Part shown: piece by piece, positions 29,125-64,000 of the stretch
How the letters are laid out: every line of letters starts with the position of its first letter
How positions within the stretch are numbered: position 1 is the first letter of the stretch
Source: a virus
Virus record (IMG/VR): IMGVR_UViG_3300020213_000023
Span: 31,046 to 95,045 of that record
Strand: one strand, 5' to 3'
Length of the DNA stretch: 64,000 bases
The notes under the pieces: model-generated
Seen by the model: only the letters and a program-made list of their open reading frames with translations
Told to the model about the DNA's origin: nothing
Databases searched by the model: none
Translations under genes and position numbers: made by a program

Positions 29125-29838
29125 ATGACCTCCGTCGAACAGGAGCTTCACCGCTTGCGTGGACGCACCAAGCTGGCGTCGTCGTCGACGGGAGAAGCCC
29201 GTCGTTTGCTCGCGCAAAACGGTACCTCGGCGGTGGCGCTCATGTTGGCCACCCGACACCTGTACGGGGACTTCCACGACTGGGAGCCGGAGACCTTGTG
29301 GGTCACCCTCGAGCGTGAAGGGGTCGCGGTCCCTCCGTGTAACCGTGACAAGCTCCAAGCAGGGATCTCCTTGTTGTTTGTTCCGTCGTTCTATTGGGAT
29401 GGCATCGTGTTCGAGAAGACCGCGGTTTCCTTTGATTGCTTCGAAGCAAATCCTGACGCCCTCGAAGAAGCGTCGTCCGCGCAGCTTGCCTGGGCAGTCA
29501 AGGAAGCCGAGTGGATCATCACCCAACACGACGGAGTCCCCCACGGCTTCGAGCACGAGCCGCGCGCGTACGCATCCGTGGTGATGTTCCGAGAGGGGCT
29601 CGTTTATGCGCCTGCACAGCTTCTGTTCGCTCAGGAAGCGCTCGACCGCATCAACGTCAACAACACGTTGAGGACCCGCGTCGAGGAGAGGTGGAAGGCG
29701 CTCGACAAGGCCAAGCTCGAGGCCTCGAAGTTCGAAGAGACCGAAGAGGACGTGCAGCTGGCGCGCCTCGCGGCGATCGAGCTGCACGTCCGGAGCAAAG
29801 AGGCCGACGCAGCTCGAGACCTAGCGCTGCTTCGCTAG
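29125..29838 (+). CDS. Hypothetical protein
   Basis: 237 aa, co-oriented with 28132; TKLAS near the N-terminus. Confidence 0.65.
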   Translation: MTSVEQELHRLRGRTKLASSSTGEARRLLAQNGTSAVALMLATRHLYGDFHDWEPETLWVTLEREGVAVPPCNRDKLQAGISLLFVPSFYWDGIVFEKTAVSFDCFEANPDALEEASSAQLAWAVKEAEWIITQHDGVPHGFEHEPRAYASVVMFREGLVYAPAQLLFAQEALDRINVNNTLRTRVEERWKALDKAKLEASKFEETEEDVQLARLAAIELHVRSKEADAARDLALLR

Positions 29839-31085
29839 GCCTTAGCTTCGGCCTCGCCCTTCTTCTGGGACACCTGCATGTTGGACACCGCGGTGATGTA
29901 CGCGGGAAGCTGCGCGAGCACGCGGTTGAGGTCCTGCATGTACCTCGTCCCGTCTTGCACCGTCTTCGACTGCGCGAAGATTTCCCGGATGAAGACGATA
30001 TTGTTTTCCTCCGGCAGGTCGCTCATGAAGTTCGATAGTTGTGAAGCGTAGCTCTCGACCTTGCGCTTCGTGTTGACGAACATCTGCATCGCGACGTTGG
30101 AAGCCAGCGCGGTGATCTTGTCCTGCCGTGCGTCCGTCAGGAGCTTCTTGAACCGGTCCTGAACTGTCGATCCGGTGTGATAGCTGCCGAGCACTTCTTC
30201 TGGCGTGATGACGATGGTCGCGTCGACGATGAACTCCGCGAACACCTCGGCGGAGGTAGCTCCGATCGCGCCCGCAAAGGCCGCCCGTGCCTCAGACGAC
30301 GTCAACGGAACCCCCGCATCATCGAATGCAGCGCACAGCTTGGACACGGTGTCCCAGCTCGCAGGGCACGCGAATGCTTTTCCGGCTCGCGCAGCGTCGA
30401 GATCGTACAAGAGCAGCGGCTGTGCCTCGAGGTGCTCGATCACCTTGACGTGGAACTTGTCCTTAGCGAAACGCATGAAGTCTCCGTAAGACGCCGCCAC
30501 ACCTACAATGACCAGACGTCGCCGCATGGCGGGGTCCTTTTCGAACTCGTTCACCGACATGCCACCCCCGGTGGGGTTCATCGTGACGATGATTTGCACC
30601 TCGTCGGGGAGCGTCATGTCTCCGATGACGCGATCATCAAGCAGGGTGAAGGTAGCCCTGGACACATGCTTATCGACCGTACGATTCAGCTCCTCGATGG
30701 CAAGGATCGGGCAGCGCCCCTTGGGAATCTTCCCGTCCGGGTGACGAAGGCGCTCCGCCTCGATGTACTCGAAGAGGGGTTGAAATCGCCGAGGAATTCG
30801 ACGATCGTAGTAGTGTTTGGTATCCTCAGCCTTCGTCGGAACATGAAAGTCCTCGATCGACATCGTCGGCATGTGCAGCGCCACGTAGGGGACGTTGCGG
30901 TCGGCGGCAGCTTGCTTCGGGATGGCGGTCTTGCCGATGCCGGATGCGCCCATGGCGGCCAGGACGAGACGGCTTCCTGCCATCGACTCGATCAATTTGC
31001 GGAAAGTGCTGGTCGACACCATATGGATGTCAAGCTTCTCGGTGAAGGACTCACCCGCGGTCTCGGTCTTTACGGTGGACATCAA
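29835..31085 (-). CDS. MoxR-like AAA+ ATPase
   Basis: Walker A GASGIGKT, Walker B LAIEELNR, TMNP sensor, DPAMRRR, CPASW. Confidence 0.88.
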   Translation of the reverse strand: MMSTVKTETAGESFTEKLDIHMVSTSTFRKLIESMAGSRLVLAAMGASGIGKTAIPKQAAADRNVPYVALHMPTMSIEDFHVPTKAEDTKHYYDRRIPRRFQPLFEYIEAERLRHPDGKIPKGRCPILAIEELNRTVDKHVSRATFTLLDDRVIGDMTLPDEVQIIVTMNPTGGGMSVNEFEKDPAMRRRLVIVGVAASYGDFMRFAKDKFHVKVIEHLEAQPLLLYDLDAARAGKAFACPASWDTVSKLCAAFDDAGVPLTSSEARAAFAGAIGATSAEVFAEFIVDATIVITPEEVLGSYHTGSTVQDRFKKLLTDARQDKITALASNVAMQMFVNTKRKVESYASQLSNFMSDLPEENNIVFIREIFAQSKTVQDGTRYMQDLNRVLAQLPAYITAVSNMQVSQKKGEAEAKA

Positions 31086-49837: not shown

Positions 49838-51610
49838 ATGTCCCAAAACGATCCCACCCTCGGCGACTTGTACGCACCGTCGAGTTCCCACGGCTCGCCG
49901 TTGTTCGACTTCCTCACGGCGTTCGCGCCTCGGAAGCTCAAGGACCTCTTCAAGCTGTGCGAGTACCTGTACTTCAACAGCTCGCAAATCTACGCGGCGC
50001 TGCAGAAGTTCTGTACGTATCCTGTCACTGACATCACCTACGACACGACCAACGAAGCACTGAAAACAAAATACAAGAACCTCCACGACAAGACGATCAA
50101 AACCAAGAGACGCCTGATTCAGGCGGCCACGGACAAGTTCGTCTACGGAAACGCGTTCTTCTCGATCTACATGCCGTTCGTGCGTTTCCTGCAGTGCAAC
50201 CACTGCAAGCAACTGACGAACATCGCGGCGGTGGACTACAAATTCAAGATCAAGAAACTTGAATTTACGTACAGGTGCGCCGCTTGCGACAAACAGGCCA
50301 CCGGGGACGTACAGGACCGCAAGGTCACCCGTCCTGACAAGGTGGCCATCATTCGGTGGGACCCGAAGCTGATGGACATCGACTACAACCCCATCACACA
50401 ACACAGCGAGTACTACTACACGATCCCGAAGGAATTGAAGGACCGCGTCGTCAAGGGAAACCACCACGTCATCAACACGATGCCGATGGAATTCCTCAAA
50501 GCGATCAAGGAGGACAAGATCTTCAAGTTCTCTGAAGGTCAGATCTTCCATATGAAGATGGATGCGCCTGCAGGCATCGAAGCCCAGTGGGGCTTCCCGC
50601 CGCTGGCATCGACGATCAAATTGTTCTTCTACGCAGCCGTGCTGCGTAAGGCGAACGAAGCCATCGCGCTCGACTACATCGTCCCTCTCCGTATCGTCTC
50701 GCCCAAGGTCGCGTCCAGCAACGCAGACCCGTTGCTCACGATCTCGCTCGATAAGTGGGCGAATGAGATGAAGCACAGCGTCAAGCGTTGGCGGCGCGAC
50801 CCTCTCCACATCATGTGGTCGCCGATTCCTGCAGAGGTCACACACCTAGGAGGGCAGGCGCGTGCACTGATGACCTTGGGTGAAGTGCAAGCGGCTGAGG
50901 ACAACATCATCGCGGCGCTGGGTTTGCCGAAGGAGTTCATCTACGGCGGCTTCTCCGCGATGGGCTCAGGCATCCAGTTGCGTGTTCTTGAGAACCAGCT
51001 GATGCACCAAACCAATGACCTCAACGATTTGCTGCAGTGGATCACTGACAAGTTCGCGAAGCTGCTCGGCTGGCCCTCGGTCAACGTGGAATTGGCGCCG
51101 TTCAAGTTCATCGACGACGTGCAGCAGAAGACCCTGCTGTTGCAGCTCCACATGTCCAATCCCCAAGACCCCATGCTGTCGAAGGGGACGTTGGGCGAAG
51201 CGTTCGATGTCGATCCTGCTGAAGAGCGGAAACGCAAACATCAAGAAGCGTTGGACGACATGAGGGCACAGCAAGAACTGCAACAAGAAATGCAGAAACT
51301 GCAAAATACGCTCGCGCAGCAAATACAGGCCCAACAAGCAATGGGTCAACAGGGGTTGCAGTACGACCAACAACAAATCATCGCGCAAGCGGACACCATG
51401 GTAGAGCAGATGATGGGCATGGACCCTGGAACACGGCGCTCACAAATGCATGCACTCGAGGTCGAGGACTTCGTCATGTTCTCCGTGGTCTCGCGCCGCA
51501 TGGAAAACATGCAGACGGCGCAAAACCACGAAGCAATCACGGCGGCGCGGCAGGGGGGAGACCCAAGCGGAGGTGGTAGCGGCGGCGGTCCTCCTGGGAT
51601 GATGGGTTGA
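49838..51610 (+). CDS. Portal protein
   Basis: IFHMK..WGFPPL and IIAALGLPKEFIYGG portal-like motifs; CxxC..CxxC insertion; Q/M/G-rich tail. Confidence 0.75.
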   Translation: MSQNDPTLGDLYAPSSSHGSPLFDFLTAFAPRKLKDLFKLCEYLYFNSSQIYAALQKFCTYPVTDITYDTTNEALKTKYKNLHDKTIKTKRRLIQAATDKFVYGNAFFSIYMPFVRFLQCNHCKQLTNIAAVDYKFKIKKLEFTYRCAACDKQATGDVQDRKVTRPDKVAIIRWDPKLMDIDYNPITQHSEYYYTIPKELKDRVVKGNHHVINTMPMEFLKAIKEDKIFKFSEGQIFHMKMDAPAGIEAQWGFPPLASTIKLFFYAAVLRKANEAIALDYIVPLRIVSPKVASSNADPLLTISLDKWANEMKHSVKRWRRDPLHIMWSPIPAEVTHLGGQARALMTLGEVQAAEDNIIAALGLPKEFIYGGFSAMGSGIQLRVLENQLMHQTNDLNDLLQWITDKFAKLLGWPSVNVELAPFKFIDDVQQKTLLLQLHMSNPQDPMLSKGTLGEAFDVDPAEERKRKHQEALDDMRAQQELQQEMQKLQNTLAQQIQAQQAMGQQGLQYDQQQIIAQADTMVEQMMGMDPGTRRSQMHALEVEDFVMFSVVSRRMENMQTAQNHEAITAARQGGDPSGGGSGGGPPGMMG

Positions 51611-52051: not shown

Positions 52052-55000
52052 ATGGCAAACACGCCCCTCACGCCTGTAATGGTCGACTCGTTTACGCGAC
52101 GGGTGGAGATTCGTCGCAAGGCGATCGAAGGGCTGATGCAATCCTTCCCGCTCAAGGCCCGGTCGTACACAGTCGAGTTGTTGAATCCACGAGTCGAGGC
52201 ACAGGAGTTCTCGTCCCGAGAACAGAAGGCCGCGATTCTCGAGGGCCGGTCGTTGAACGAGCGCGTCCGCGGCGACCTGATCGTACGTGACGCGCAAGGC
52301 AACATTACGAGCGACGCCAAGGGGTTCACCCTTCTCCACTTGCCGTACTTCACGCCGCGTCACACGTTCATCGTCGACGGCACTGAATACAGTGTTTCCA
52401 ATCAGATCCGCACGAAGCCTGGCGTATACACCCGACGGCGCGGCAACGAGGACCTCGAAGCCTCGTTCAACCTGTCGAAAGGCGGCAACTTCCGTGTCCT
52501 CATGGAACCAGAGAAGGGGCACCTCTTCGTCCAGCCAACGCACTCGACGACACGGATCCCGTTGTACCCCGTCCTACGTGCGCTCGGCGTGCCGCACCAG
52601 GACATCGCAGGGAACTGGGGCAATGAAGTAGCTACGCTGAATCGCGACGCATTCAAGAACCCCGAAAAGCACGTCGACAAGTTCTACGCGAACTTCATCC
52701 ATCCCGCCCAACAGACGCACACGTCGCTCGATGAGAAGGTCCGTGCGCTTCACGGATATCTCGATACGACCGCGATGGACCCGCACGTCAACAAGGTCAC
52801 GCTGGGCCATGGTTACGAAAAGGCGTCACCTCAAGCAATCCTGGCCGCCTCGAAGAAGCTTCTCGACGTCCACCGTGCTGCGGACGACACCGACGATCGA
52901 GACTCTCTAGCGTTTAAGACGTTTCACTCTGTCGACGACTTCATCAAGGAAAGGCTCGCGCTCGATGCGCGGTCGCAACGGATGAAGATGGGCATCAAAC
53001 TGGAAGCCCACAAGGGAGACATCCGAAAGGCGCTACCGTCTGCGCCATTCACACGAACCATCAATTCGTTCCTGACGGGATCGTCGCTGTCCGCAGTGCC
53101 GACGCAGATCAACCCAATGGAACTTATCGATCACGCGGTTCGAGTCACCTCGCTCGGCGAAGGCGCCATCTCGTCCGAACGCGCGATTCCGCTGGAGGCG
53201 CGCAATCTGCACGCGACTCACTTTGGGATCATGGATCCGGTAAGAACCCCGGAGAGCTTCAAAGCGGGCATCGACATTCGCGCAGCTCTGTCTACCCGCC
53301 GGGACACGCAAGGCAACCTCTTCTCGACTTTGCGCAACCTCAAGACAGGGCGCACCGAGCACGTCAAGGCCGAGGACATTATGCACTCGGTCGTGGCGTT
53401 CCCTCACGAGGACGTGCGACCAGGCAAGATGGTGGACGCGCTGACTCGAGGTCACGTGCAGCGTGTTCCCGCTTCGCAGGTGACGCACCAAGTCGTGCAC
53501 GTGTCTGACCTCTACGGACCGACGACGAACCTCCTGCCGTTCCTCAACGGCATGCAGGGCAACCGCTCGTTGATGGCATCCAAGCACCAGAGCCAGGCGC
53601 TGTCCCTGATTCATCGGGAGGCGCCGCTCGTGCAGGTTCAGTCGTGGAAGCCGGGCTCCTCCGTCGAACAGGAGATGAACAAGCTCATCGTCCCGACGTC
53701 ACCGGTGGCAGGGATCGTGTCGCACATCGACGACGACTACATCCACATCACGCCGGACAACCACAAAGCGGCGTCGAGCCCCACTGCCGTCGTCGTGAAG
53801 GGGAACCCACGGTTCATCGAGGGGAACGCAGAAGCCACGCGCTTCTACGATGAGATCAAGAAACATCTTGAATCTGTCGGCTACTCCGTAACGTTCGACG
53901 CGGGAGAGCCCTACACACAACCCGTCAACGCCGACCTTTGGGTTGGACATAGCCGTGGGGCAGACCGTCTTCGTTTCGCGCCCAACACAACTCGAACCGT
54001 CGTACTGGGGAGCCCTCACCCGGATGCAATCAATCACCCGGACGATTCAGTTAACGCCCATTTGACGAATACGCCTCCGTCTATCGCTCACTTCACGTTG
54101 ACGCCAGAAATGAAAAACGCGTTGTCAACGATGCCGAGCAAAGGCGCGTCCGCTCCTTGGGAAGACCCCGGCGACGTCTATTCCGACTTCGTCAAGGTCG
54201 GCGACAACGGCAACATCAAGCTCCACTACGACCAAAACTTCCCGCTAGCGGCCAAGACGTACCTGCACAACGACATCAAGGTGAAAGCGGGTGACCGTGT
54301 TCGCGTGGGTCAGGTTCTCGCAACGTCCAACTTCTCGAAGGACGACACTCTAGCGCTCGGCACCAACCTGAGCGTTGCGTACATGCCGTACCGCGGCCTC
54401 AACACGAACGACGGCATCGTCGTGTCGCAGGGAGCCGCAAACCGTCTCGTCTCCGAGCACATGTACAAGCATGTCATGATCTTGACCGGAGGCGTGGAAG
54501 CGAAGCGCGAGAAGCACCGCGCGTACTTCGGTAACAAGTACACCGCAAAACAGTACGATAACCTCGACGAGGACGGTGTCGTCCGTCCCGGGGCGATCGT
54601 ACAGTCGCACGACCCGCTCATTGTGGCCGTTCGTCCGAATCAAGCCACAGGCAACGCAGTGCTATTGGGCCGCTTGTCCAAGTCGTTGGTCAAGCCGTTC
54701 TCCGAAGAAGTCGAGCTGTGGGACCACGATCGACCAGGCACGGTCATCGACGTGGCCAAGACGGGCGACCGCGTCACAGTCACCGTGAAGACAGAGGAGC
54801 ACCTCAACATCGGCGACAAGCTCTCCGGACGCTACGGCAACAAGGGCGTCATCGCGAAGATTGTCCCTGACCACCAGATGATTCAGGACGAGAAGGGAAA
54901 ACCCATCGATCTGCTCTTTACCTCTGCCGGCATCATCTCGCGTATCAACCCGGCACAGGTCATCGAGGCGTCTCTCGGCAAGGTCGCAGCGCACACAGGT

Positions 55001-56842
55001 AAACCCATCGCGGTCGAGAACTTCGCACCGCACGACAACGTGCAGTACGCGAAGGACATGTTGAAGAAGCACGGACTGTCCGACAAGGAGACCGTCTTCG
55101 ATCCGGTCACCAATCGGTCAATCCCCAAGGTGTTCGTCGGCAAGAGCTACATCCTCAAATTGTTCAAGACCACGGACTCGAACTGGTCAAGTCACGGAGC
55201 GGACCGGTACGACTTCAACCAGCAGCCATCGCGCGGCGGTGACGATGGCGCCAAGGCCATCGGCAAGATGGAATTTGACGGTCTCGTCGCACACAACGCG
55301 CGCAACGTGTTGAAGGAAGCTGCGTCTCTCAAGAGCCAGAAGAACGACGAATTCTGGCGCGCGATTCAGCTTGGCCTTCCGACGCCGACACCGCAGACCC
55401 CGTTCGCCTACAACAAGTTCCTCACGATGCTCGAGGGCGCAGGTGTCAAAGTCTCGAAGAAGGGGTCGCGCCTTTCGCTCGGGCCCCTCACGGACAACGA
55501 CATCGCGAAGATGTCGTCGGGAGCGCTCAAAGAGCCGCACAAGATGATTCGCGCTAAGGACCTGCACCCTGAAACAGGCGGCATGTTTGATCCCGCGACC
55601 ACAGGAGGGATGAGCGGAACGAAGTGGTCGCACGTCGAGCTGCACGAACCGCTCGTCAATCCCGTGTTCGAGGAGCCTGTGCGGCGCCTCCTGGGGCTAA
55701 CCCAGAAAGAGTTCACGGACCTGCACAGCAGGCACGGCGGCGCATGGTTTCGACAGGAGCTGGGACGTATCGACGTCGACTTCCGTTTGAAAGAGTTGCG
55801 TGACCGAAGCCGAACGCTCAAAGGCACTGCCCTTGATGACGTTGTCAAACAGATCAAATACCTCAATGCGTTGCAGGCTCAGAAGCTGTCGCCAGACTTG
55901 GCTTACGTGCTCACCAAGATTCCGGTGACGCCCCCGATCATCAGACCCATCCTCCCCCTCAAGGACGGCCGCCTGCAGGTCGGCGACGCCAACCTCCTCT
56001 ACCGCGACGCCTTCCTCGCCAACGACAAACTTCACGAGGTAAAGGGTGTGTTGCCCGCGAATGAACTGCATGCGCCGCGCAAGCATCTCTACGACGCAAT
56101 CAGTGCCGTATTCGGTGTGGGTGATCCAGTGAGCCCTACCACGGAGAAACGCGAGGCCAAGGGCTACCTCGCGATGATCACGGGTACACGCCCGGGAAGC
56201 GGATTCTTCCAGGGCAAGTTGATGAAGCGACAACAAGACATCTCAGGACGCGCGACCATCGCACCTGACCCGACGTTGTCGATGGACGAGATTGGCGTCC
56301 CGGAAGACATGCTATGGGGCATGTTCGGAAAGTTTGTTATCGGGCGTTTGGTTAAGCGCGGCTACACGGCTCTGGACGCACAGAAGATGGTGGAGGAGAA
56401 AGCGCCGCTCGCCCGACAGGAACTGCTTATCGAGGCGAAGGAACGTCCGGTCATGGTGAACCGTGCACCATCGCTCCATCGCTTCAACATCATCGGAGCC
56501 TTCCCCCGCATCACGACAGGCAAGACGTTGATGCTGAATCCCTTCGCTGAAAAGGGAACGAACGCAGACTACGATGGCGATGCAATGCAGATCCACGCGC
56601 CTGTGACCCCCGGAGCGGTCGAAGACGTCAAGCGGATGACGTTGTCGCACCTGCTATTCAATGACCGGCGCCCCGGCCAGTTGAACGTGGCACCAGACAT
56701 GGAAGCCATCATCGGGCTCCACCGCGCCACAGGGGCCAAGTCCGACAAGGTCACAAAGCACTTCGCTTCGAAGGAGACCGCGTTGGCCGCGTACCACCGC
56801 GGGGAAATTTCCCTGGCGGACACGATCGAGATTGCCAAGTAA
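52052..56842 (+). CDS. rpoB: Phage multisubunit RNA polymerase, beta fused to the N-terminal part of beta'
   Basis: beta motifs FIVDG, DPVRTPE, NRSLMASKHQSQA, GDKLSGRYGNKG, SRIN, IGKME; beta' motifs IPVTPPIIRP, GRATIAP, NRAPSLH, NADYDGD (56561-56581). Confidence 0.95.
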   Translation: MANTPLTPVMVDSFTRRVEIRRKAIEGLMQSFPLKARSYTVELLNPRVEAQEFSSREQKAAILEGRSLNERVRGDLIVRDAQGNITSDAKGFTLLHLPYFTPRHTFIVDGTEYSVSNQIRTKPGVYTRRRGNEDLEASFNLSKGGNFRVLMEPEKGHLFVQPTHSTTRIPLYPVLRALGVPHQDIAGNWGNEVATLNRDAFKNPEKHVDKFYANFIHPAQQTHTSLDEKVRALHGYLDTTAMDPHVNKVTLGHGYEKASPQAILAASKKLLDVHRAADDTDDRDSLAFKTFHSVDDFIKERLALDARSQRMKMGIKLEAHKGDIRKALPSAPFTRTINSFLTGSSLSAVPTQINPMELIDHAVRVTSLGEGAISSERAIPLEARNLHATHFGIMDPVRTPESFKAGIDIRAALSTRRDTQGNLFSTLRNLKTGRTEHVKAEDIMHSVVAFPHEDVRPGKMVDALTRGHVQRVPASQVTHQVVHVSDLYGPTTNLLPFLNGMQGNRSLMASKHQSQALSLIHREAPLVQVQSWKPGSSVEQEMNKLIVPTSPVAGIVSHIDDDYIHITPDNHKAASSPTAVVVKGNPRFIEGNAEATRFYDEIKKHLESVGYSVTFDAGEPYTQPVNADLWVGHSRGADRLRFAPNTTRTVVLGSPHPDAINHPDDSVNAHLTNTPPSIAHFTLTPEMKNALSTMPSKGASAPWEDPGDVYSDFVKVGDNGNIKLHYDQNFPLAAKTYLHNDIKVKAGDRVRVGQVLATSNFSKDDTLALGTNLSVAYMPYRGLNTNDGIVVSQGAANRLVSEHMYKHVMILTGGVEAKREKHRAYFGNKYTAKQYDNLDEDGVVRPGAIVQSHDPLIVAVRPNQATGNAVLLGRLSKSLVKPFSEEVELWDHDRPGTVIDVAKTGDRVTVTVKTEEHLNIGDKLSGRYGNKGVIAKIVPDHQMIQDEKGKPIDLLFTSAGIISRINPAQVIEASLGKVAAHTGKPIAVENFAPHDNVQYAKDMLKKHGLSDKETVFDPVTNRSIPKVFVGKSYILKLFKTTDSNWSSHGADRYDFNQQPSRGGDDGAKAIGKMEFDGLVAHNARNVLKEAASLKSQKNDEFWRAIQLGLPTPTPQTPFAYNKFLTMLEGAGVKVSKKGSRLSLGPLTDNDIAKMSSGALKEPHKMIRAKDLHPETGGMFDPATTGGMSGTKWSHVELHEPLVNPVFEEPVRRLLGLTQKEFTDLHSRHGGAWFRQELGRIDVDFRLKELRDRSRTLKGTALDDVVKQIKYLNALQAQKLSPDLAYVLTKIPVTPPIIRPILPLKDGRLQVGDANLLYRDAFLANDKLHEVKGVLPANELHAPRKHLYDAISAVFGVGDPVSPTTEKREAKGYLAMITGTRPGSGFFQGKLMKRQQDISGRATIAPDPTLSMDEIGVPEDMLWGMFGKFVIGRLVKRGYTALDAQKMVEEKAPLARQELLIEAKERPVMVNRAPSLHRFNIIGAFPRITTGKTLMLNPFAEKGTNADYDGDAMQIHAPVTPGAVEDVKRMTLSHLLFNDRRPGQLNVAPDMEAIIGLHRATGAKSDKVTKHFASKETALAAYHRGEISLADTIEIAK

Positions 56843-56871: not shown

Positions 56872-57207
56872 GTGAGCACCATCGTGAAAGAGGCCTACGA
56901 CGAGGGCGTCGCAGAGGCGCTCACCAGGTTCGGCCTCAAGGAAGCGGCAAACGAGATCCGCCTCAAAATCCCCAAGCGGGAGTTTCACGGTTTCGACGCA
57001 GCGTTCAAGCCGCGCGTGAAGGCGCTCAAGGAAGCCAACAGCGAGCCACTCGAACCGCAGGCATCGCCAGAGCAGCCTGCGGAGATGCTCGCGGACATAT
57101 TGCAGACGTTAAGCCTGCCAGCACCTCCAGGGGAGCAAAAACATACGGCGGTTGACCGCCCTGTTTTCTGGGGCAGCCCCACGGACGCAAGTAAAGGAGC
57201 CGTTTAA
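56872..57207 (+). CDS. Putative head-internal protein with shared N-terminal leader
   Basis: KEAYDEGVAEALTRFGLKEAA. Confidence 0.7.
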   Translation: MSTIVKEAYDEGVAEALTRFGLKEAANEIRLKIPKREFHGFDAAFKPRVKALKEANSEPLEPQASPEQPAEMLADILQTLSLPAPPGEQKHTAVDRPVFWGSPTDASKGAV

Positions 57208-57599
57208 TGCTTACCAAGGCCGCAACAGAAGGTGCTCTTGCCGCGTGCGATCGGTTCGGTGTCGACGCAGAGAAGCTCGCCGCTGTGGCTCCCACGAGCT
57301 TCTTGTCCTCGGTAATCCCGCGGGCAAAGGCATTCGGGCAAAGCCAGTGGGGCGCCGCGAAGTCTCTCGTCAACAACGCACGTGGCGGACTTGGTGGACG
57401 GCTCAGCCCTGACTTCAAGGGAAGCTTGGACCCAAGCCACCTTGAACTGGGGCGCGCGGCACACCGCTCTCAGGCAGTAGGGAACCTCAAGACCCTCGCG
57501 CCTACGCTGGCCGGCGTGGGCGGTCTCGGCCTGCTCAATCACATGAGCAACAAGAAGAAGGAGCAAGCACAGCTCCAACAGCCGCAAGGACGTTTCTAA
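57207..57599 (+). CDS. Putative head-internal / ejection protein with shared leader
   Basis: AAGGAG SD; KAATEGALAACDRFGVDAEKLAA; Gly-rich hydrophobic C-terminal helix. Confidence 0.7.
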   Translation: MLTKAATEGALAACDRFGVDAEKLAAVAPTSFLSSVIPRAKAFGQSQWGAAKSLVNNARGGLGGRLSPDFKGSLDPSHLELGRAAHRSQAVGNLKTLAPTLAGVGGLGLLNHMSNKKKEQAQLQQPQGRF

Positions 57600-57606
57600 A
57601 AAATCC

Positions 57607-59403
57607 GTGGCGACTCTCGGCGAACACATGGTTGACGCGATCCTACCCGCGGAGTATCGCGGCCGTGGAACGCTCACGAAGCAGCGCCTCAACGAGATCC
57701 TCGTCGATATCGCGAAGAAACACCCCGACAAATATCCGGACATCGTCACCAAGCTCAAGCGGCTCGGCGACGAATGCGCGACACTTGAGGGCATTTCCGT
57801 AGGGCTCGACGACATCGCGCCGCACTACGAAACACGCGATGCGATCGTTTCGCCGTTCCACGCGCAGTTCAACAAAGCGCAACCGCATGAACGGGAGAAG
57901 ATTCTCCTCGACGCACAGAACGCGGTCCTCGGCCACACCAAGAACAACTCCGGCACGATGGGTGAGATGGTGCGGTCGGGCGGTCGCGGCAACGCTGCGC
58001 AGCTCATGCGCATCATTGGTGCGCCTATCCTCGCGCGAGACGAACGTGATCGTATCGTCCCGTGGTTCATTCCCCGTTCTTACGCCGAAGGGTTGAAGCC
58101 GTCCGACGCGTGGGTCGCCGGCAACGAAGCGCGTATAAACGCGATCAAGTCGAACATCTCCGTCGTCGAACCGGGTGACCTCGCCAAGATCCTCGTCAAC
58201 AACATGGGCGACAAGCTCATCTCGATGCCTGACTGCAAGACGTCCAACGGCGTCGCCATGAGCGCACGGGATGCACACGCGGTCGATCGCTATCTCGCAA
58301 AGCCCGTGAATGGCGTTACAGCCGGCACGTTGCTGACCCCCCAGACGCTTCAGCACCTGGGCGAGGCGATGCTCATCGTTCGATCGCCTATGACGTGTGA
58401 AGCACCGCACGGCATCTGCCAGCGCTGCCAAGGCTTGTCATCGACCGGACACGTACACTCTATCGGCACGAACGTTGGCATGCGTGCGGCGCAGGCATTG
58501 TCCGAACCTCTTACCCAGTTTTCACTCAATGCCAAACACGGCGGGCGTATCACGACCACCGACGACCACGTGAAGCGACCCGAAGGTATCAAGGGCGTGC
58601 GCCAGGTCCTCGAGGTCCCCGAGTCGTTTCTCCACAAAGCGACACTCGCGGACCACGCGGGAACAGTGGCTCGCATAGAGCCCGCACCCCAAGGCGGAAA
58701 CTACGTCTGGGTCGATCAGACCCGTCACTACGTACCGCCGGACCTGCGCGTCACGGTCACCAACGGCAAGCACGTGGAAGCGGGCGATACGCTTTCGAAT
58801 GGCGTGCCCAAACCTGACGAGATCGTGAAGCACAAAGGGCTCGGAGAGGGGCGGCGGTACCTCGTCGATACGCTTCACGACGTCTACAAGAGGTCTGGTG
58901 CGGACATCGACCGACGCCATATCGAAACCCTGGCGCGTTCGGTGCTCAATCACGTGTCGATCGAAGACCCAGGGGAAGACGACGCCCATGGGTTCATCAA
59001 GGGCGATATCGTCAACTACAATCGTTTCTCTGCCGCGTTGGCGTTGCATCAAAAGCAACTGCCTGTCGACGATGCAATCGGCGAAACACTCGCAGCGAAT
59101 ACGCTGCACTTTACGGCGGGAACTCACCTGACAGGTTCCGTGCGCGACACGCTCGTTAAGCACGGGATAAAGACGGTGGCGGTTGCGCAGAACGGGCCTC
59201 GGGCCGTTCCGATCATGCGCGCAGCGTCCCGCACGCCGTTGTTGAATCCAGACTGGATGGCGCGTCTGGGCCACCGATACCTCAAGCAGTCTCTGCTTGA
59301 AGGCGCGTGGCGGGGCGATGTAAGTGATACACACGGACCCCACCCGGTCCCGGCGTACGCTGCGGGAACCGAATTCGGCGAAGGATCGGAAGGGCACTAC
59401 TGA
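57607..59403 (+). CDS. rpoC: Phage RNA polymerase beta' C-terminal subunit
   Basis: GISVGLDD, MVRSGGRG, SYAEGL, DC..RSPMTC..GICQRC zinc site, trigger loop AAQALSEPLTQ..KHGG, RHIE. Confidence 0.92.
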   Translation: MATLGEHMVDAILPAEYRGRGTLTKQRLNEILVDIAKKHPDKYPDIVTKLKRLGDECATLEGISVGLDDIAPHYETRDAIVSPFHAQFNKAQPHEREKILLDAQNAVLGHTKNNSGTMGEMVRSGGRGNAAQLMRIIGAPILARDERDRIVPWFIPRSYAEGLKPSDAWVAGNEARINAIKSNISVVEPGDLAKILVNNMGDKLISMPDCKTSNGVAMSARDAHAVDRYLAKPVNGVTAGTLLTPQTLQHLGEAMLIVRSPMTCEAPHGICQRCQGLSSTGHVHSIGTNVGMRAAQALSEPLTQFSLNAKHGGRITTTDDHVKRPEGIKGVRQVLEVPESFLHKATLADHAGTVARIEPAPQGGNYVWVDQTRHYVPPDLRVTVTNGKHVEAGDTLSNGVPKPDEIVKHKGLGEGRRYLVDTLHDVYKRSGADIDRRHIETLARSVLNHVSIEDPGEDDAHGFIKGDIVNYNRFSAALALHQKQLPVDDAIGETLAANTLHFTAGTHLTGSVRDTLVKHGIKTVAVAQNGPRAVPIMRAASRTPLLNPDWMARLGHRYLKQSLLEGAWRGDVSDTHGPHPVPAYAAGTEFGEGSEGHY

Positions 59404-59954
59404 TGTTGGAAGACGCCTACCGCGCCGGCATGAAAGAAGCGTGTGACCGCTTCGGTATCAAAGAAGCGATGCCTGTGGGCGTTACTAACTTTGGCCGTCG
59501 CGCATGGAACGCAGCGTCAACCATTCCTCAGGTTTTGTTCGGCAACCCCATCAAAGCGTATCGCGAGGGGATGGGCACCTTCCGCCGCGGTGGTGTCATG
59601 GACCCGGTGGCTGCGTTCTGGCCTTCCGTAGCTAAGGGTCCCGCCGGTGAGCGATTGCCGCAGGCGCTGGGATGGCTCAGTCGAGCAGAAACCGCTACGT
59701 CTGGGTATGGCGTCTACAAAGCGATGAAGGGCGAGGGCGGCGACCCCAACGAAGGTCGTTTGTCCAACACCCTCAGCGCACTTGGGAGCGCTGCCGGCCT
59801 GGGCTTCGGTTTTCCCACCGTAGGAGCCCTCGGCGCGCCTCTTGTTGCACGCGCAGGGGCTTCCCTTGGTAAAGGGGTAGGTCGCGTATTTGGCAGCACA
59901 CCAGAACCACAGCAACTCGACCCGTTGATGTACGGGCAAGGGGTTTACCAGTGA
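59403..59954 (+). CDS. Putative ejection protein with shared leader and glycine zipper
   Basis: DAYRAGMKEACDRFGIKEA; ALGSAAGLGFGFPTVGALGAPLVARAGASLGKGVG. Confidence 0.7.
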   Translation: MLEDAYRAGMKEACDRFGIKEAMPVGVTNFGRRAWNAASTIPQVLFGNPIKAYREGMGTFRRGGVMDPVAAFWPSVAKGPAGERLPQALGWLSRAETATSGYGVYKAMKGEGGDPNEGRLSNTLSALGSAAGLGFGFPTVGALGAPLVARAGASLGKGVGRVFGSTPEPQQLDPLMYGQGVYQ

Positions 59955-60178
59955 CCCTCAAGAAATCGTATGACGAGGGCGTCAGGACGGCGCTCAATCA
60001 TTTTTGTGTTCGAGATGTAAAAATCGCGAACATGATTAGGGGTGCGGCGGGGTATAACCCAACGCTCAACCCTGCACAGTCTTCGGCAACCGCTATGCCG
60101 TCTGTAATGCCGAAGCCTGCGACACCCCCGACTGCACCGGTCGCAAGTGGCGCTAGTAAGGCAAACGTCCTCGGTTGA
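59951..60178 (+). CDS. Small protein with shared leader
   Basis: KSYDEGVRTALNHFCVRDVKIA; Pro/Ala-rich remainder. Confidence 0.65.
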   Translation: MTLKKSYDEGVRTALNHFCVRDVKIANMIRGAAGYNPTLNPAQSSATAMPSVMPKPATPPTAPVASGASKANVLG

Positions 60179-60198
60179 TTTGTGTAACCGAGGGTTTT

Positions 60199-60208
60199 GG
60201 CCTACCAT
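60199..60208 (+). promoter_or_regulatory. Putative promoter GGCC-TACCAT
   Basis: Matches the CC-TAnnnT motif; intergenic, upstream of GAGGAG SD and ATG 60255. Confidence 0.5.
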
Positions 60209-60254
60209 TTTGCAGCTAAACAACCGCTTTCAGACGACTCGAGGAGACGACAAC

Positions 60255-61526
60255 ATGTTCAAGAACGCATACGTTCGAGGCGTCACAAACGCGCTGATCC
60301 AAAGCGGTCATGTTGCGTTTCCCGACGAGGATTCCGCGGCCAAGATCGCGGACTTCATTGGCGATCGTGCGGATTTCGATCCGCACAACATGACACGCGA
60401 AGTCGCGTTGAAGATCGCCAACGCCGTCATCGAAGCATCGGAACACCTCGTCGCGAAGGGCTACAAGGCCGCCGCGGTCACGATGAAGGTTGCTTCCGTC
60501 GAGGACCTCGGCAAGCTCGCCCATGCCCACGTCATCCACTTGATGGAGAAGGCCGCTGAAGGCTCGACCATCGAGGGCGGTGACAAGGGCAACGCGGAGT
60601 CGAACTCCGCTGAGGGCAAGATGGACGCGTCGCAGCGTCCGCCTGGCTACGCCGAGAACTCGCTCGGCAGCTCTGCCGTCGATACCCGCCCGGGTGCCGT
60701 AGGCAAGGAGCAGCCGCAACCCAACGCGCCGTCGGAGTCGCCGTCAGGGTCGAACTCGATCACGGATGCCTCGAAGGCGGCCTCGCTCGGCGCGCTGATC
60801 AAGAAGGTCGCTGAAGGCACGACGATCCTGGGCGGCGACAAGGGCAACACGGAGCCGACCACAGCAGAGGGCAAGATGGACGCAGCGATGCGTCCGCCCG
60901 GCTACGCCGTCCTGCCCGGCCAGGGCGACCTCGGCGAGCTGATGAACCAGGTCAGCAGCAACGCGGTTGTTGGCCGCGAGACCCCGCATCCGAACGCGCC
61001 CTCCGAGTCGCCGTCGGGTTCGAACTCGCTCACAGAGCACTCGTCCAAGGCGGCAGCCGAGGACCCGTTCGTCGCTGTCTTCAAGAATACCGCGACCGAG
61101 ATCGTTCGGTACCTCCCGGCCTCTCTGGATGACTACGCGAAGATCGCCCACGTTCGTGCCTGTATGGGCCTGTCGATGAACGAGAAGGCGCACTATCTCG
61201 TCGGCCTCCAAAAGGAGGCAGCGGACAAGACCGCGGCGAAGGCGCGGGCTGCCGCACCGTCCTACCAAGGCTACGACGGCCGTAACGCGAACCAGCGCAA
61301 GGTCGCGGAGATGCCGGCATTCATCCAAGAGAAGATCGACGCCCGGAAGGAAGAGGGCGGCGAGAAGAAGGACGATGACAAGGCGTCCGGCGGCTTCCCG
61401 TTCGCCAAGAAGGATGACGAGAAGAAGGACGAGAAGAGCGAGGACAAGAAGGACGAGGACAAGAAGGAAGCGTCCCTCGCTGCTCACTTCCGTCGTATCT
61501 CGGCCTCGATCAACTCGGCTGCGTAA
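60255..61526 (+). CDS. Putative head scaffold / core protein with internal duplication
   Basis: GAGGAG SD; leader KNAYVRGVTNAL; two ~80-aa repeats; more than 10 KxA sites; K/D/E-rich tail. Confidence 0.7.
   Translation: MFKNAYVRGVTNALIQSGHVAFPDEDSAAKIADFIGDRADFDPHNMTREVALKIANAVIEASEHLVAKGYKAAAVTMKVASVEDLGKLAHAHVIHLMEKAAEGSTIEGGDKGNAESNSAEGKMDASQRPPGYAENSLGSSAVDTRPGAVGKEQPQPNAPSESPSGSNSITDASKAASLGALIKKVAEGTTILGGDKGNTEPTTAEGKMDAAMRPPGYAVLPGQGDLGELMNQVSSNAVVGRETPHPNAPSESPSGSNSLTEHSSKAAAEDPFVAVFKNTATEIVRYLPASLDDYAKIAHVRACMGLSMNEKAHYLVGLQKEAADKTAAKARAAAPSYQGYDGRNANQRKVAEMPAFIQEKIDARKEEGGEKKDDDKASGGFPFAKKDDEKKDEKSEDKKDEDKKEASLAAHFRRISASINSAA
60549..61055 (+). repeat. Diverged direct repeat (60549-60782 and 60804-61055)
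   Basis: K(A/V)AEG(S/T)TIxGGDKGN..AEGKMDA..RPPGYA..VG.E.P.PNAPSESPSGSNS.T..SKAA occurs twice. Confidence 0.9.
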
Positions 61527-61551
61527 ACGTACTGGCCAGGAGGCCGCTTCA

Positions 61552-61728
61552 ATGCTTAGCCGTCGAGCCCGTCTCGCGGGCGTTCAAATCATTGAAGCGG
61601 CCCTCTCTAAAACCGCGTTTGTCTCCGTGCCAACTCTGGCATCGTTGAAGGCAAAGAAGACCCGGGAACTCGACTCGCTTCCCACGGCGAGCGCTGAGGT
61701 CCCTAAAGTCGTTTCTACGCCCCTCTGA
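61552..61728 (+). CDS. Small protein (58 aa), degenerate leader plus KTA site
   Basis: AGGAGG SD; MLSRRARLAGVQIIEAALSKTAF; the ORF track shows it only as the tail of a longer frame. Confidence 0.55.
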   Translation: MLSRRARLAGVQIIEAALSKTAFVSVPTLASLKAKKTRELDSLPTASAEVPKVVSTPL

Positions 61729-61741
61729 AAAGGCGATCCAA

Positions 61742-64000
61742 ATGCCGAGCATGAGCCCCAAGACACAGCAGTTCCAGACGGCAGCAGGAGCCGGCGTCGA
61801 CCAGGCAACTCAGCTGTTCGAGCAGGGCTTCTCGCAAATGGCCTACAACGTCCTGATGTCAAGACTGCCGGACATCGTACAGGACGTAGTGACGTTCAAA
61901 ATTATCGACACCGACGCAGATCGCGGCGTGGGTGTTGGTGCGTTCGTGGTCATGCGGAACGACAATCCGCTCTACATCCCTGTGGTGATGACCGACAACA
62001 ACATCAAGCCCCTCGAGCTGGTCTACCACAAGACCCTCAACATCTTCCTCCCGCTGTCGAGTCAGTGGCTCGGAGAGTTGGACAAAACTTCGCTCACGTC
62101 GATGGGCAAGGGCGTCAAGACACCCGAGACTCTCTACACCGACGTCGACATTCGTAACGTCGTGGTGCCGCCCATGACCGGACGCTTTTCGTACGCCGCG
62201 TGGGCGCCGGTGATTCTTGCAGACGTCGCTAAGGTTCTCGACAAGGACACAATCGAAAAGGTGGCTGCAGAGCCTTCTCTGGTCCTGATCGACTTCCTCA
62301 CCAAGGCACCCAATCGCGTCAAGTCTGCATTTGCGCGCATGCTCCAGAAGAACACTAAAACGCTCAAGACCGCCGCACGTATTTACGGCGTGAAAGCGTT
62401 GACCGAAGCACTTCGGCACAACGTTGAGAAGACGGCAGCCAAGCAACTCTACGGCGGCGCCTTGTGGATTGCCGACAAAGACACAAAGCCGACTGAGTTC
62501 AAGCGTATCTTCGGCGAGAACGCGGCCGAGGCGTACTCGGGCGTTCGCCTCAAGGGCTACGCCGCCAAGGACAGCCGCACGCACCGCAACATGGCGGTGC
62601 AGGAGCAGACGCACGAGACCTGGACCGAGCCCAACCAGCCCGGCGTCTATGTTCTCTTTGGTGTCGACGGAACGGAGAAGCCCGCGCTTATCGTGCCGAA
62701 CCCGATCGATCTGTTCCACACAAGCGAGTACGACCGTCACGACATGGCGCGAGGTCACTCGCACGCCAACGGGCGTCGCAAGTACACCGGAAGCGACAAG
62801 TACCTCGCGGTGTTCCCCAACGGGGACTACCTTCAAACCGGGGCATTGGCCGGACGGCAATCGAGTATCGACGAGATCTCTGGCAGCACGCTGTACCGCA
62901 ACGTGTTCGGGGAGGCGGCAGGCGAGCCGCGTCAGGGCAAGGGCGTGTTCATCCGCCAGCGCGGAGCTTCTATCCAGGCAACGTGTCCCCTCGAAATCAA
63001 GTCGATGTCGACAGGGTCCGATGGCGTCCGTCGCATGGTGGTGTCGGGTCTGTTTGGCTACCGCGAAAAGACTCTCGTTACACAGCCGGGCAGTGCACTC
63101 GGTCAAATCACCACGCCCCGCGACGCGGGCGTGGCGTATCTTCCCAATGATTTCGTATGGGTTCCTCTCAAGGAATCTCTCGATTCGAGGTCATTCTTCC
63201 GGGACGTGCAAGACTTGGCGCGAGACGCCTATCACGCACTTGCGTCGGTCGGAGCCAAGAAGATTGCCGTCAAGAACGCAGGGCATGGAATGTTCTCGAT
63301 CAACGGAGCGCTGTCGCTCGAGCGCGTCCCCGCACTAAAAAAACTGGCGACCGACTACGTGCTTCCTGTCGAAGTCGTCGAACAGCTCCTCGAGAAGGCT
63401 GCGACTGACCGCCGCGTCGACGTATGGATCACCTCTGGTGAGACGCTGGCAAAAGCCCAGATGAAGTTGGGCTGGCCGCACAAGAAGGAAAAGGACGACG
63501 GCGGCGACAGCGAAAAGAAGGAGACCGCCAAGAAGAAGCCCGAAGGCGGTGGGGGTGAAGCTCCTCCGCAGGACCCGGGGATGGACCCGAGCATGGACCC
63601 GTCGATGGGCGGAGATCCGTCGATGGGCATGGCGCCGCCGGCTCCGCCGCCTCCGTCTCCCACCGACATGGCAGCAGCGGAGATGGACCAGCACATCCAA
63701 CAGGAGATGCAGAAACTCGTCGAGAAGCAGCAAATGCTGCAGGCACTCACCATGCGCGCCAACGAGATCGCAGGAGGCGCTCCGATGATGCCGACGGTGC
63801 AAAACCAGATGATGGGCGCACCTCCTCCATCAGCGAACCTGGCGACCGGACAACCGACGCCAGGCGGTAGCATGGGCGGCATGGACCCGATGGCGGGCGG
63901 CGGCATGGGTGGCGACCCGTCGATGATGGCGGCTCCCGGAGGCGCATTGCCACAAGACATGGGTGGCATGGATCCCGCCATGGGTGGCGATCCGTCAATG
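61742..64000 (+). CDS. Large putative head protein, >753 aa, runs off the window (absent from the ORF track)
   Basis: Uninterrupted frame MPSMSPKTQQFQ..YIPVVM..IKPLEL..VVPPMTGRFSYAA..; EKVAA, EKTAA and EKAAT sites; MDPSM/GG repeats at the end. Confidence 0.85.
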   Translation, partial: MPSMSPKTQQFQTAAGAGVDQATQLFEQGFSQMAYNVLMSRLPDIVQDVVTFKIIDTDADRGVGVGAFVVMRNDNPLYIPVVMTDNNIKPLELVYHKTLNIFLPLSSQWLGELDKTSLTSMGKGVKTPETLYTDVDIRNVVVPPMTGRFSYAAWAPVILADVAKVLDKDTIEKVAAEPSLVLIDFLTKAPNRVKSAFARMLQKNTKTLKTAARIYGVKALTEALRHNVEKTAAKQLYGGALWIADKDTKPTEFKRIFGENAAEAYSGVRLKGYAAKDSRTHRNMAVQEQTHETWTEPNQPGVYVLFGVDGTEKPALIVPNPIDLFHTSEYDRHDMARGHSHANGRRKYTGSDKYLAVFPNGDYLQTGALAGRQSSIDEISGSTLYRNVFGEAAGEPRQGKGVFIRQRGASIQATCPLEIKSMSTGSDGVRRMVVSGLFGYREKTLVTQPGSALGQITTPRDAGVAYLPNDFVWVPLKESLDSRSFFRDVQDLARDAYHALASVGAKKIAVKNAGHGMFSINGALSLERVPALKKLATDYVLPVEVVEQLLEKAATDRRVDVWITSGETLAKAQMKLGWPHKKEKDDGGDSEKKETAKKKPEGGGGEAPPQDPGMDPSMDPSMGGDPSMGMAPPAPPPPSPTDMAAAEMDQHIQQEMQKLVEKQQMLQALTMRANEIAGGAPMMPTVQNQMMGAPPPSANLATGQPTPGGSMGGMDPMAGGGMGGDPSMMAAPGGALPQDMGGMDPAMGGDPSM

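Follow-up and report, generated by a model that had tools for sequence, protein, structure and literature searches.

Why should a series of small viral proteins with quite different bodies begin with the same stretch of about 20 residues? The question is raised by a 64,000-nucleotide segment (hereafter the window) of the IMG/VR virus record IMGVR_UViG_3300020213_000023, positions 31,046 to 95,045, in which small genes flank and separate the two genes of a split RNA polymerase. A first-pass annotation of the window had proposed that six proteins encoded between 56872 and 61728 share an N-terminal leader, an amphipathic helix ending in K-x-A, that would dock cargo in the procapsid and then be cut off. 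Our analysis established a portable helix, under selection at the protein level, at the N-terminus of small late proteins otherwise without detectable similarity. As to its role, the reading we prefer from sequence comparison, with a probability of roughly 45%, is that of a common docking element by which small proteins would be built into the virus particle.

A recurrent N-terminal motif and its carriers

The N-termini quoted in the first-pass annotation are present in the sequence. Four of the six candidates were recovered by leave-one-out hidden Markov models (HMMs) searched against all 2,091 six-frame open reading frames (ORFs) of the 95-kb genome, each as the first match outside the training set. 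These are carrier 1 (111 amino acids (aa), 56872..57207, motif core 56884-56949, E 1.6e-6), carrier 2 (130 aa, 57207..57599, core 57210-57275, E 0.039), carrier 3 (183 aa, 59403..59954, core 59406-59471, E 2e-5) and carrier 4 (75 aa, 59951..60178, core 59957-60022, E 0.012), all on the + strand. The 423-aa protein encoded at 60255..61526 (+ strand, core 60258-60323) is a marginal fifth member. It was missed by the HMM built from the window only, which on iteration drifted to the 60255 family and was replaced by a fixed 22-column core (alignment A1). With an HMM of the relatives' copies holding no 60255-type row, this protein came top among the frames outside its family, at E 0.047 and aligned at its N-terminus. 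The sixth candidate, a small conserved ORF of 58 aa at 61552..61728 (+ strand), was rejected, as it did not score with any motif HMM and its 13 orthologs have another N-terminus in common.

Column counts over 51 non-redundant copies gave the motif h-K-x-A-[Y/H]-x-x-G-x-x-x-A-L-x-x-[F/Y]-[G/K]-h-K-x-A (h, hydrophobic; x, any residue), which stands at residues 2-22 of the four small carriers. In the core alignment A1 of 34 sequences, G8 is invariant and A12 is present in more than 90%. The related set used for these comparisons comprises 36 IMG/VR loci, found via the C-terminal part of the polymerase beta' subunit (57607-59403). The small ORFs around the polymerase genes are real genes, because each has syntenic orthologs in 7 to 32 of these 36 loci. 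We counted 16 orthologs for 56872 (33-43% identity), 14 for 57207, seven by tblastn for 59951 and 32 for 60255, a family with at least 199 database clusters, none of them named.

Selection on the protein, and a modular leader

The copies are N-terminal, as the first-pass annotation expected of HMM matches: a start codon is found at most six codons upstream in 46 of the 51 (background 36%), and an ATG at most three codons upstream in 37 (background 11%). A signal in the DNA or RNA, be it for translation initiation, a promoter or an RNA structure, could be suspected here, and several carriers do start at overlapping stop-start junctions. The junction sequences read TAATG at 57207, where carrier 2 starts over the stop of carrier 1, TGATG at 59403, where carrier 3 starts over the stop of the beta' C-terminal part (beta'C), and GTGA at 59951, where the GTG start of carrier 4 overlaps the stop of carrier 3. 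These overlapping starts and stops show that carrier genes are translationally coupled to the polymerase genes and to neighbouring carriers. The conserved residues A4, G8 and A12, however, are encoded by every one of their four synonymous codons, and the third codon position is the least conserved, with nucleotide identities of 0.53, 0.57 and 0.35 at the three positions, so that it is the protein on which selection acts. Chance resemblance is excluded on the statistics of the leave-one-out and profile-profile comparisons. Furthermore, the motif is retained in the orthologs of all five families, which are only 33-60% identical. An explanation by a nucleotide-level signal or by chance is therefore extremely improbable.

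The earlier statement that similarity stops after the leader proved correct. When ortholog families were compared with hhalign, only residues 1-22 aligned, in register; P lay between 2e-6 and 9e-4 for pairs of small families (four in all) and between 0.003 and 0.15 for pairs with the 60255 family. Once the leader had been trimmed, no pair of families did better than P 0.14.

Carriers in related viruses

Whole records of ten relatives were scanned with the core profile, giving 1-9 matches per record and at least five in seven of the ten. Every match lies on the strand of the virion operon, as does every copy in the 36 related loci. Elsewhere in this operon the relatives encode at least seven further carrier families, which makes at least 12 families in all. 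Their positions can be described relative to Salmonella phage Arash which, with Vibrio phage D181, was the only cultured phage found by protein search, both being distant relatives with ~30% identity in the polymerase; at the nucleotide level, no cultured phage matched. Four of the further families lie in tandem between the homologs of Arash gp233 and gp234. One follows the gp236 homolog and precedes the gp237 homolog (presumed sheath and tube, respectively), and its protein has an internal motif copy followed by a Gly-rich hydrophobic segment, while the others lie farther downstream. The order of the virion genes is otherwise conserved between these viruses and Arash; the carrier genes are inserted into it at several places and are specific to the clade. 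The motif is confined to the virion operon, where some carrier genes lie between tail genes.

Between the presumed sheath and tube genes, L040 (L040:2086-2814:-) and L075 (in G007, near 29589) encode a protein of ~240-280 aa with an internal motif, and a second Gly-rich protein is encoded beside it. Two database proteins that are members of the clade, P0122 and P0126, have two motif copies per chain and may be fusions of adjacent carriers or gene-calling read-throughs.

The distant loci L013 and L023 have divergent small carriers at the same positions, which indicates that the carrier family is old within the group and that the low HMM counts in distant loci reflect model bias. An ancestral copy on the 60255 protein, from which the motif would have spread only within the near clade, had been entertained; with divergent carriers found in L013 and L023, this idea was dropped.

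Predicted structures

For the 60255 protein, AlphaFold2 (with a 60-sequence alignment of its family) places helix 2-17 at the start of a three-helix N-terminal unit (residues 1-70), which is predicted with a local distance difference test score (pLDDT) of ~89. This unit is followed by two disordered repeats of ~85 aa, a confident helical C-domain and a Lys/Asp-rich tail. Foldseek gave no match to the 60255 model in BFVD below E 0.1. The tandem repeats each open with K-(A/V)-A-E-G-(S/T) and the near-invariant blocks G-G-D-K-G-N, A-E-G-K-M-D and R-P-x-G-Y-A are found in them. The 59403 model starts with a helix at 2-16 (pLDDT ~50), which a disordered linker (17-28) joins to a helical body. The body is a conserved Gly-zipper-like helical region with the invariant glycines G128/G132/G136/G141 (alignment A4), and in the same alignment the indels concentrate directly after K-x-A, in the linker. 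The clustering of indels and the predicted disorder fit the prediction of a design made up of tag, linker and body.

One could also explain the shared helix by descent alone. The carriers would be paralogs diverged after tandem duplication, each keeping its first helix for its own fold or stability, with no shared partner and no targeting. The carriers do stand in tandem runs (2+2+1 here, four consecutive in the relative G001), their low-complexity bodies would diverge fast, and the 60255 helix belongs to a folded unit. In addition, comparison of orthologs shows no higher conservation in the leader than in the remainder of the protein (identity 0.23-0.52 versus 0.32-0.40). Against this stands the diversity of the bodies, which range from 59 to 423 aa in different families, differ in composition and have no profile similarity. 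The 59403 helix is predicted, at low confidence, to be detached from its body. Moreover, that the helix is fixed in place directly behind the start codon in at least 12 families requires some constraint common to them all. Descent alone strikes us as an unlikely explanation.

The helix bears a stripe of small residues, A4, G8 and A12, beside Y/H5, L13 and F/Y16, and most of the variable motif positions are occupied by charged residues. It has no hydrophobic core of the kind found in a signal peptide or membrane anchor, the mean Eisenberg hydrophobicity of the five leaders being -0.12 to 0.17. Small-residue stripes are typical of tight helix-helix packing and would suit an uncleaved self-association helix of LisH-like logic, through which the carriers would bundle while their Gly-zipper bodies would act later, for example in ejection or as channels by insertion into a membrane, or as accessory proteins of neck or tail, with no targeting to the head. 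Conserved Gly-zipper-like segments in several carriers (with weak matches to Gly-zipper models in Pfam), the two natural proteins with two motif copies per chain and the carrier genes adjoining presumed sheath and tube homologs all agree with this. The motif region also matched the LisH_WDR26 model (LisH, Pfam PF23627 and relatives) weakly, at E 0.07-0.25, but this was seen in two 56872 orthologs only and at 11.2-13 bits, far under the gathering cut-off of 27. Moreover, a plain oligomerisation helix needs no N-terminal bias as strong as 46 of 51. Self-association is the main rival of the docking reading, if somewhat on the unlikely side.

A proposed docking helix in the assembling particle

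Among the proteins of the Arash virion proteome, the polymerase beta subunit ranks first in abundance, and beta', a sigma factor and gp218, a "structural protein" with 1,149 spectra, are also abundant; the preparation listed 116 proteins, which is a caveat on this evidence of packaging (PMC10585845). Because the virions of Arash are rich in polymerase subunits, sigma factor and the gp218 homolog, the polymerase/carrier module of the window is, by analogy, plausibly a packaged-polymerase head module. The place held here by 59403, 59951 and 60255 is taken in Arash by gp217 (L039:13809-15227), a helicase that is abundant in the virion proteome (1,148 spectra).

Docking, the docking partner and a location of the carriers in the head are what we infer. 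Residues 2-17 would form one helix with the cap G/K-h-K-x-A and a flexible linker after it. As the particle assembles, the helices of all carriers would bind to the same partner, most probably in the procapsid interior near the portal and the conserved 60255-type protein, and small late proteins that resemble each other in nothing else would in this way be built into the virion along with the packaged RNA polymerase. The procapsid interior is favoured because of the precedents of the T4 capsid-targeting sequence (CTS) and P1 DarB, because the main cluster sits between the portal and head genes, and because the carriers are co-translated with a polymerase of a kind packaged by relatives. It seems doubtful that the tag would, in addition, be a virion-loading address that imitates the first helix of the 60255-type core protein, which is conserved universally; the carriers would then dock by mimicry at the site used by that helix and be packaged beside the injected polymerase, whether or not they are trimmed at K-x-A.

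Removal of the tag after K-x-A by a prohead protease might follow, but it is the weakest step of the proposal and we consider it rather improbable. The leader had been described as ending in K-x-A, and this triplet is indeed enriched just after the helix, in 34 of the 51 copies versus 4.4% of random 9-mers (15-fold in our tally), where the T4-type protease end h-x-E is seen in only eight. It is, however, neither universal nor in a fixed register: 17 copies are without it, and elsewhere it shifts between K19-x-A21 and K17-x-A19.

These irregularities are among several points that weigh against the docking reading. Most 56872 orthologs have a conserved extension of ~37 aa (M-P-F-K/R-S-x-A-Q-R-R-Y-L-F ...) before the motif (e.g., L001:9074-9547, L003:8019-8480 and L007:9107-9568); it is absent in L012, in L030/L034 and in the phage studied here, which has lost it. 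The motif is internal or duplicated in some proteins, and in relatives some cassettes are found not among head genes but between genes of the neck and next to those presumed to encode sheath and tube. The 60255 helix is predicted inside its folded unit and not as a free leader. The description of the helix as amphipathic did not hold, as the hydrophobic moment exceeds shuffled controls for 59951 alone. The polymerase subunits, which would be the obvious cargo, are untagged, and the proteins known to carry the tag are not enzymes but tiny proteins, either of the Gly-zipper kind or rich in Pro/Ala. No motif match was found in the polymerase, the portal homolog or the putative protease and capsid genes of the relatives. 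A search of 1.84 billion proteins with a 32-column leader profile, itself underpowered, turned up no tagged enzyme cargo; two of its seven matches at E <= 1e-3 are junk repeats and the others belong to the same clade. Finally, the motif is carried by no cultured phage: Arash and Vibrio phage D181 are without it, and no 60255 homolog was found in cultured phages. The tag proposed in the first-pass annotation is thus partly supported, as a modular, N-terminal element conserved at the protein level in at least 12 families, with a variable linker and an enriched K-x-A after it and in a gene setting that fits, whereas a simple cleaved head leader is made less credible by the extensions, the internal copies, the tail-side cassettes, the folded 60255 unit and the untagged polymerase.

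Library searches did not assign the carriers to any described family. Pfam, PHROGs and NCBIfam gave nothing above threshold on any of them, and the ESM Atlas returned for 59403 only unnamed viral clusters, below 0.9. Neither a family model nor a named relative was found for the motif, nor any paper that describes it.

Gene order and context genes

On the + strand, the genes follow in the order portal homolog, beta-beta'N fusion, 56872, 57207, beta'C, 59403, 59951, 60255, 61552 and 61742. The portal homolog (49838..51610, + strand) shares 29% identity (E 6e-94) with the annotated portal of Arash, gp204; searches of Pfam, PHROG, NCBIfam and PDB sequences gave no support of their own for this identity. 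The polymerase is made up of one 1596-aa protein joining beta and the N-terminal part of beta' (52052..56842, + strand; Pfam Rpb2_6, Rpb2_3, Rpb1_1 and Rpb1_2) and of beta'C (57607..59403, + strand; Pfam Rpb1_5). The last gene (61742..64000, + strand) encodes a large conserved virion protein, homologous to Arash gp218 and 936-946 aa long in relatives, and is cut by the end of the contig.

The window is the final 64 kb of an incomplete viral contig of 95,045 bp, and the genes found 3' of the 61742 homolog in relatives have no counterpart anywhere in it, the putative protease, scaffold-like and capsid genes included. The contigs of the relatives are 145-197 kb long, the closest relative found being the 197-kb groundwater contig L077 (75% identity in the 61742 protein). 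In relatives, a 581-603-aa protein homologous to Arash gp222 is encoded ~6 kb downstream of the 61742 homolog. It matches phrog_18299, "head maturation protease" (E 1e-8), with no support from Pfam or PDB, and is followed by a scaffold-like protein and then by the major capsid protein. The gene setting given in the earlier annotation, with a portal homolog upstream, a split RNA polymerase and, in relatives, a protease homolog and capsid downstream, is thus confirmed on the strength of homologs.

Some further observations were made on these genes. The major capsid proteins of the clade, Arash and Vibrio D181 have a (T/V)-K-E-A element ~30 residues from the N-terminus (examples are L040:16242-17180:- in G001, L077:20129-21055 and, for Arash gp226, L039:23232-24155); coverage of the Arash capsid protein in virion mass spectrometry is 86.6%. 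The polymerase protein 52052-56842 has ~147 aa extra (window 53777-54217) relative to its 1449-aa ortholog in L001, and the tblastn alignment of the two breaks between genome positions 84821 and 85263. Residues 579-694 of the same protein match phrog_30942 (E 1.5e-13), a family of unknown function. A 7-bp inverted repeat, CTCGGTT / AACCGAG, followed by GGTTTTGG, separates the 59951 ORF from the 60255 gene (window 60170-60200). It was spotted by eye, is not listed by the terminator scan and may end the polymerase transcription unit.

Significance and comparison with known systems

Phages that inject a polymerase must load much protein into the head, and what is known of how such cargo is addressed comes largely from T4 and P1. 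The ~20-residue module links a dozen families of otherwise unannotated genes in a phage clade that is abundant in the environment, and it suggests for them a role that can be tested. As a loading tag, it would repeat the principle of the T4 CTS with a different sequence, the second such case, and might serve for protein delivery; as a virion-loading address, it would be a handle that could be transferred to any protein to be brought into the capsids of these polymerase-packaging phages, a large and uncultured group. An oligomerisation helix would define a new family of small virion-associated Gly-zipper proteins. Even if it is not a loading tag, the motif provides a family signature, not recognised before, for a phage clade that is widespread and uncultured.

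Like LisH, the motif is short, N-terminal and helical, and its conserved Gly is followed by an A-x-x-F pattern. It differs from LisH in the spacing from the aromatic residue to the Gly, and it is not a LisH member.

The cleavage consensus of phiKZ-like propeptides, found on head and ejection proteins, ends in Glu. Giant phages of this kind, such as SPN3US, package a multisubunit RNA polymerase together with a mass of internal proteins, and the prohead protease processes several of these. Unlike the leader studied here, their propeptides are not described there as one shared sequence motif (PMC5694885, PMC7411985). The polymerase also differs, the beta-beta'N fusion and beta'C of the window belonging to a different, largely uncultured lineage. 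We presume, as a guess only, that this could be the "mReC" group of PMC7481178.

In P1 DarB, fewer than 30 residues from the N-terminus are enough to direct a reporter to the inside of the capsid (PMC9024508). The likeness, drawn by description, lies in a short N-terminal packaging stretch, but the DarB signal is described for a single 250-kDa protein whereas the present motif is found on a dozen families.

The CTS of T4 has ~10 residues and ends at a gp21 site of the type L/I-x-E. The present motif has ~20 residues and ends in h-K-x-A, the two being compared by description and not by sequence. In T4 this short N-terminal peptide loads diverse internal proteins into the prohead scaffolding core (PMC3012670), and it can carry foreign proteins (PMC9024508, citing Mullaney and Black). 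The two systems are alike in that a short N-terminal peptide is common to otherwise diverse small proteins of one phage group. In T4 the internal proteins are packaged; for the present carriers, packaging, cleavage and injection are hypothetical. Unlike the T4 proteins, which are encoded at a hypervariable locus, several of the carriers are stable orthologs across the clade.

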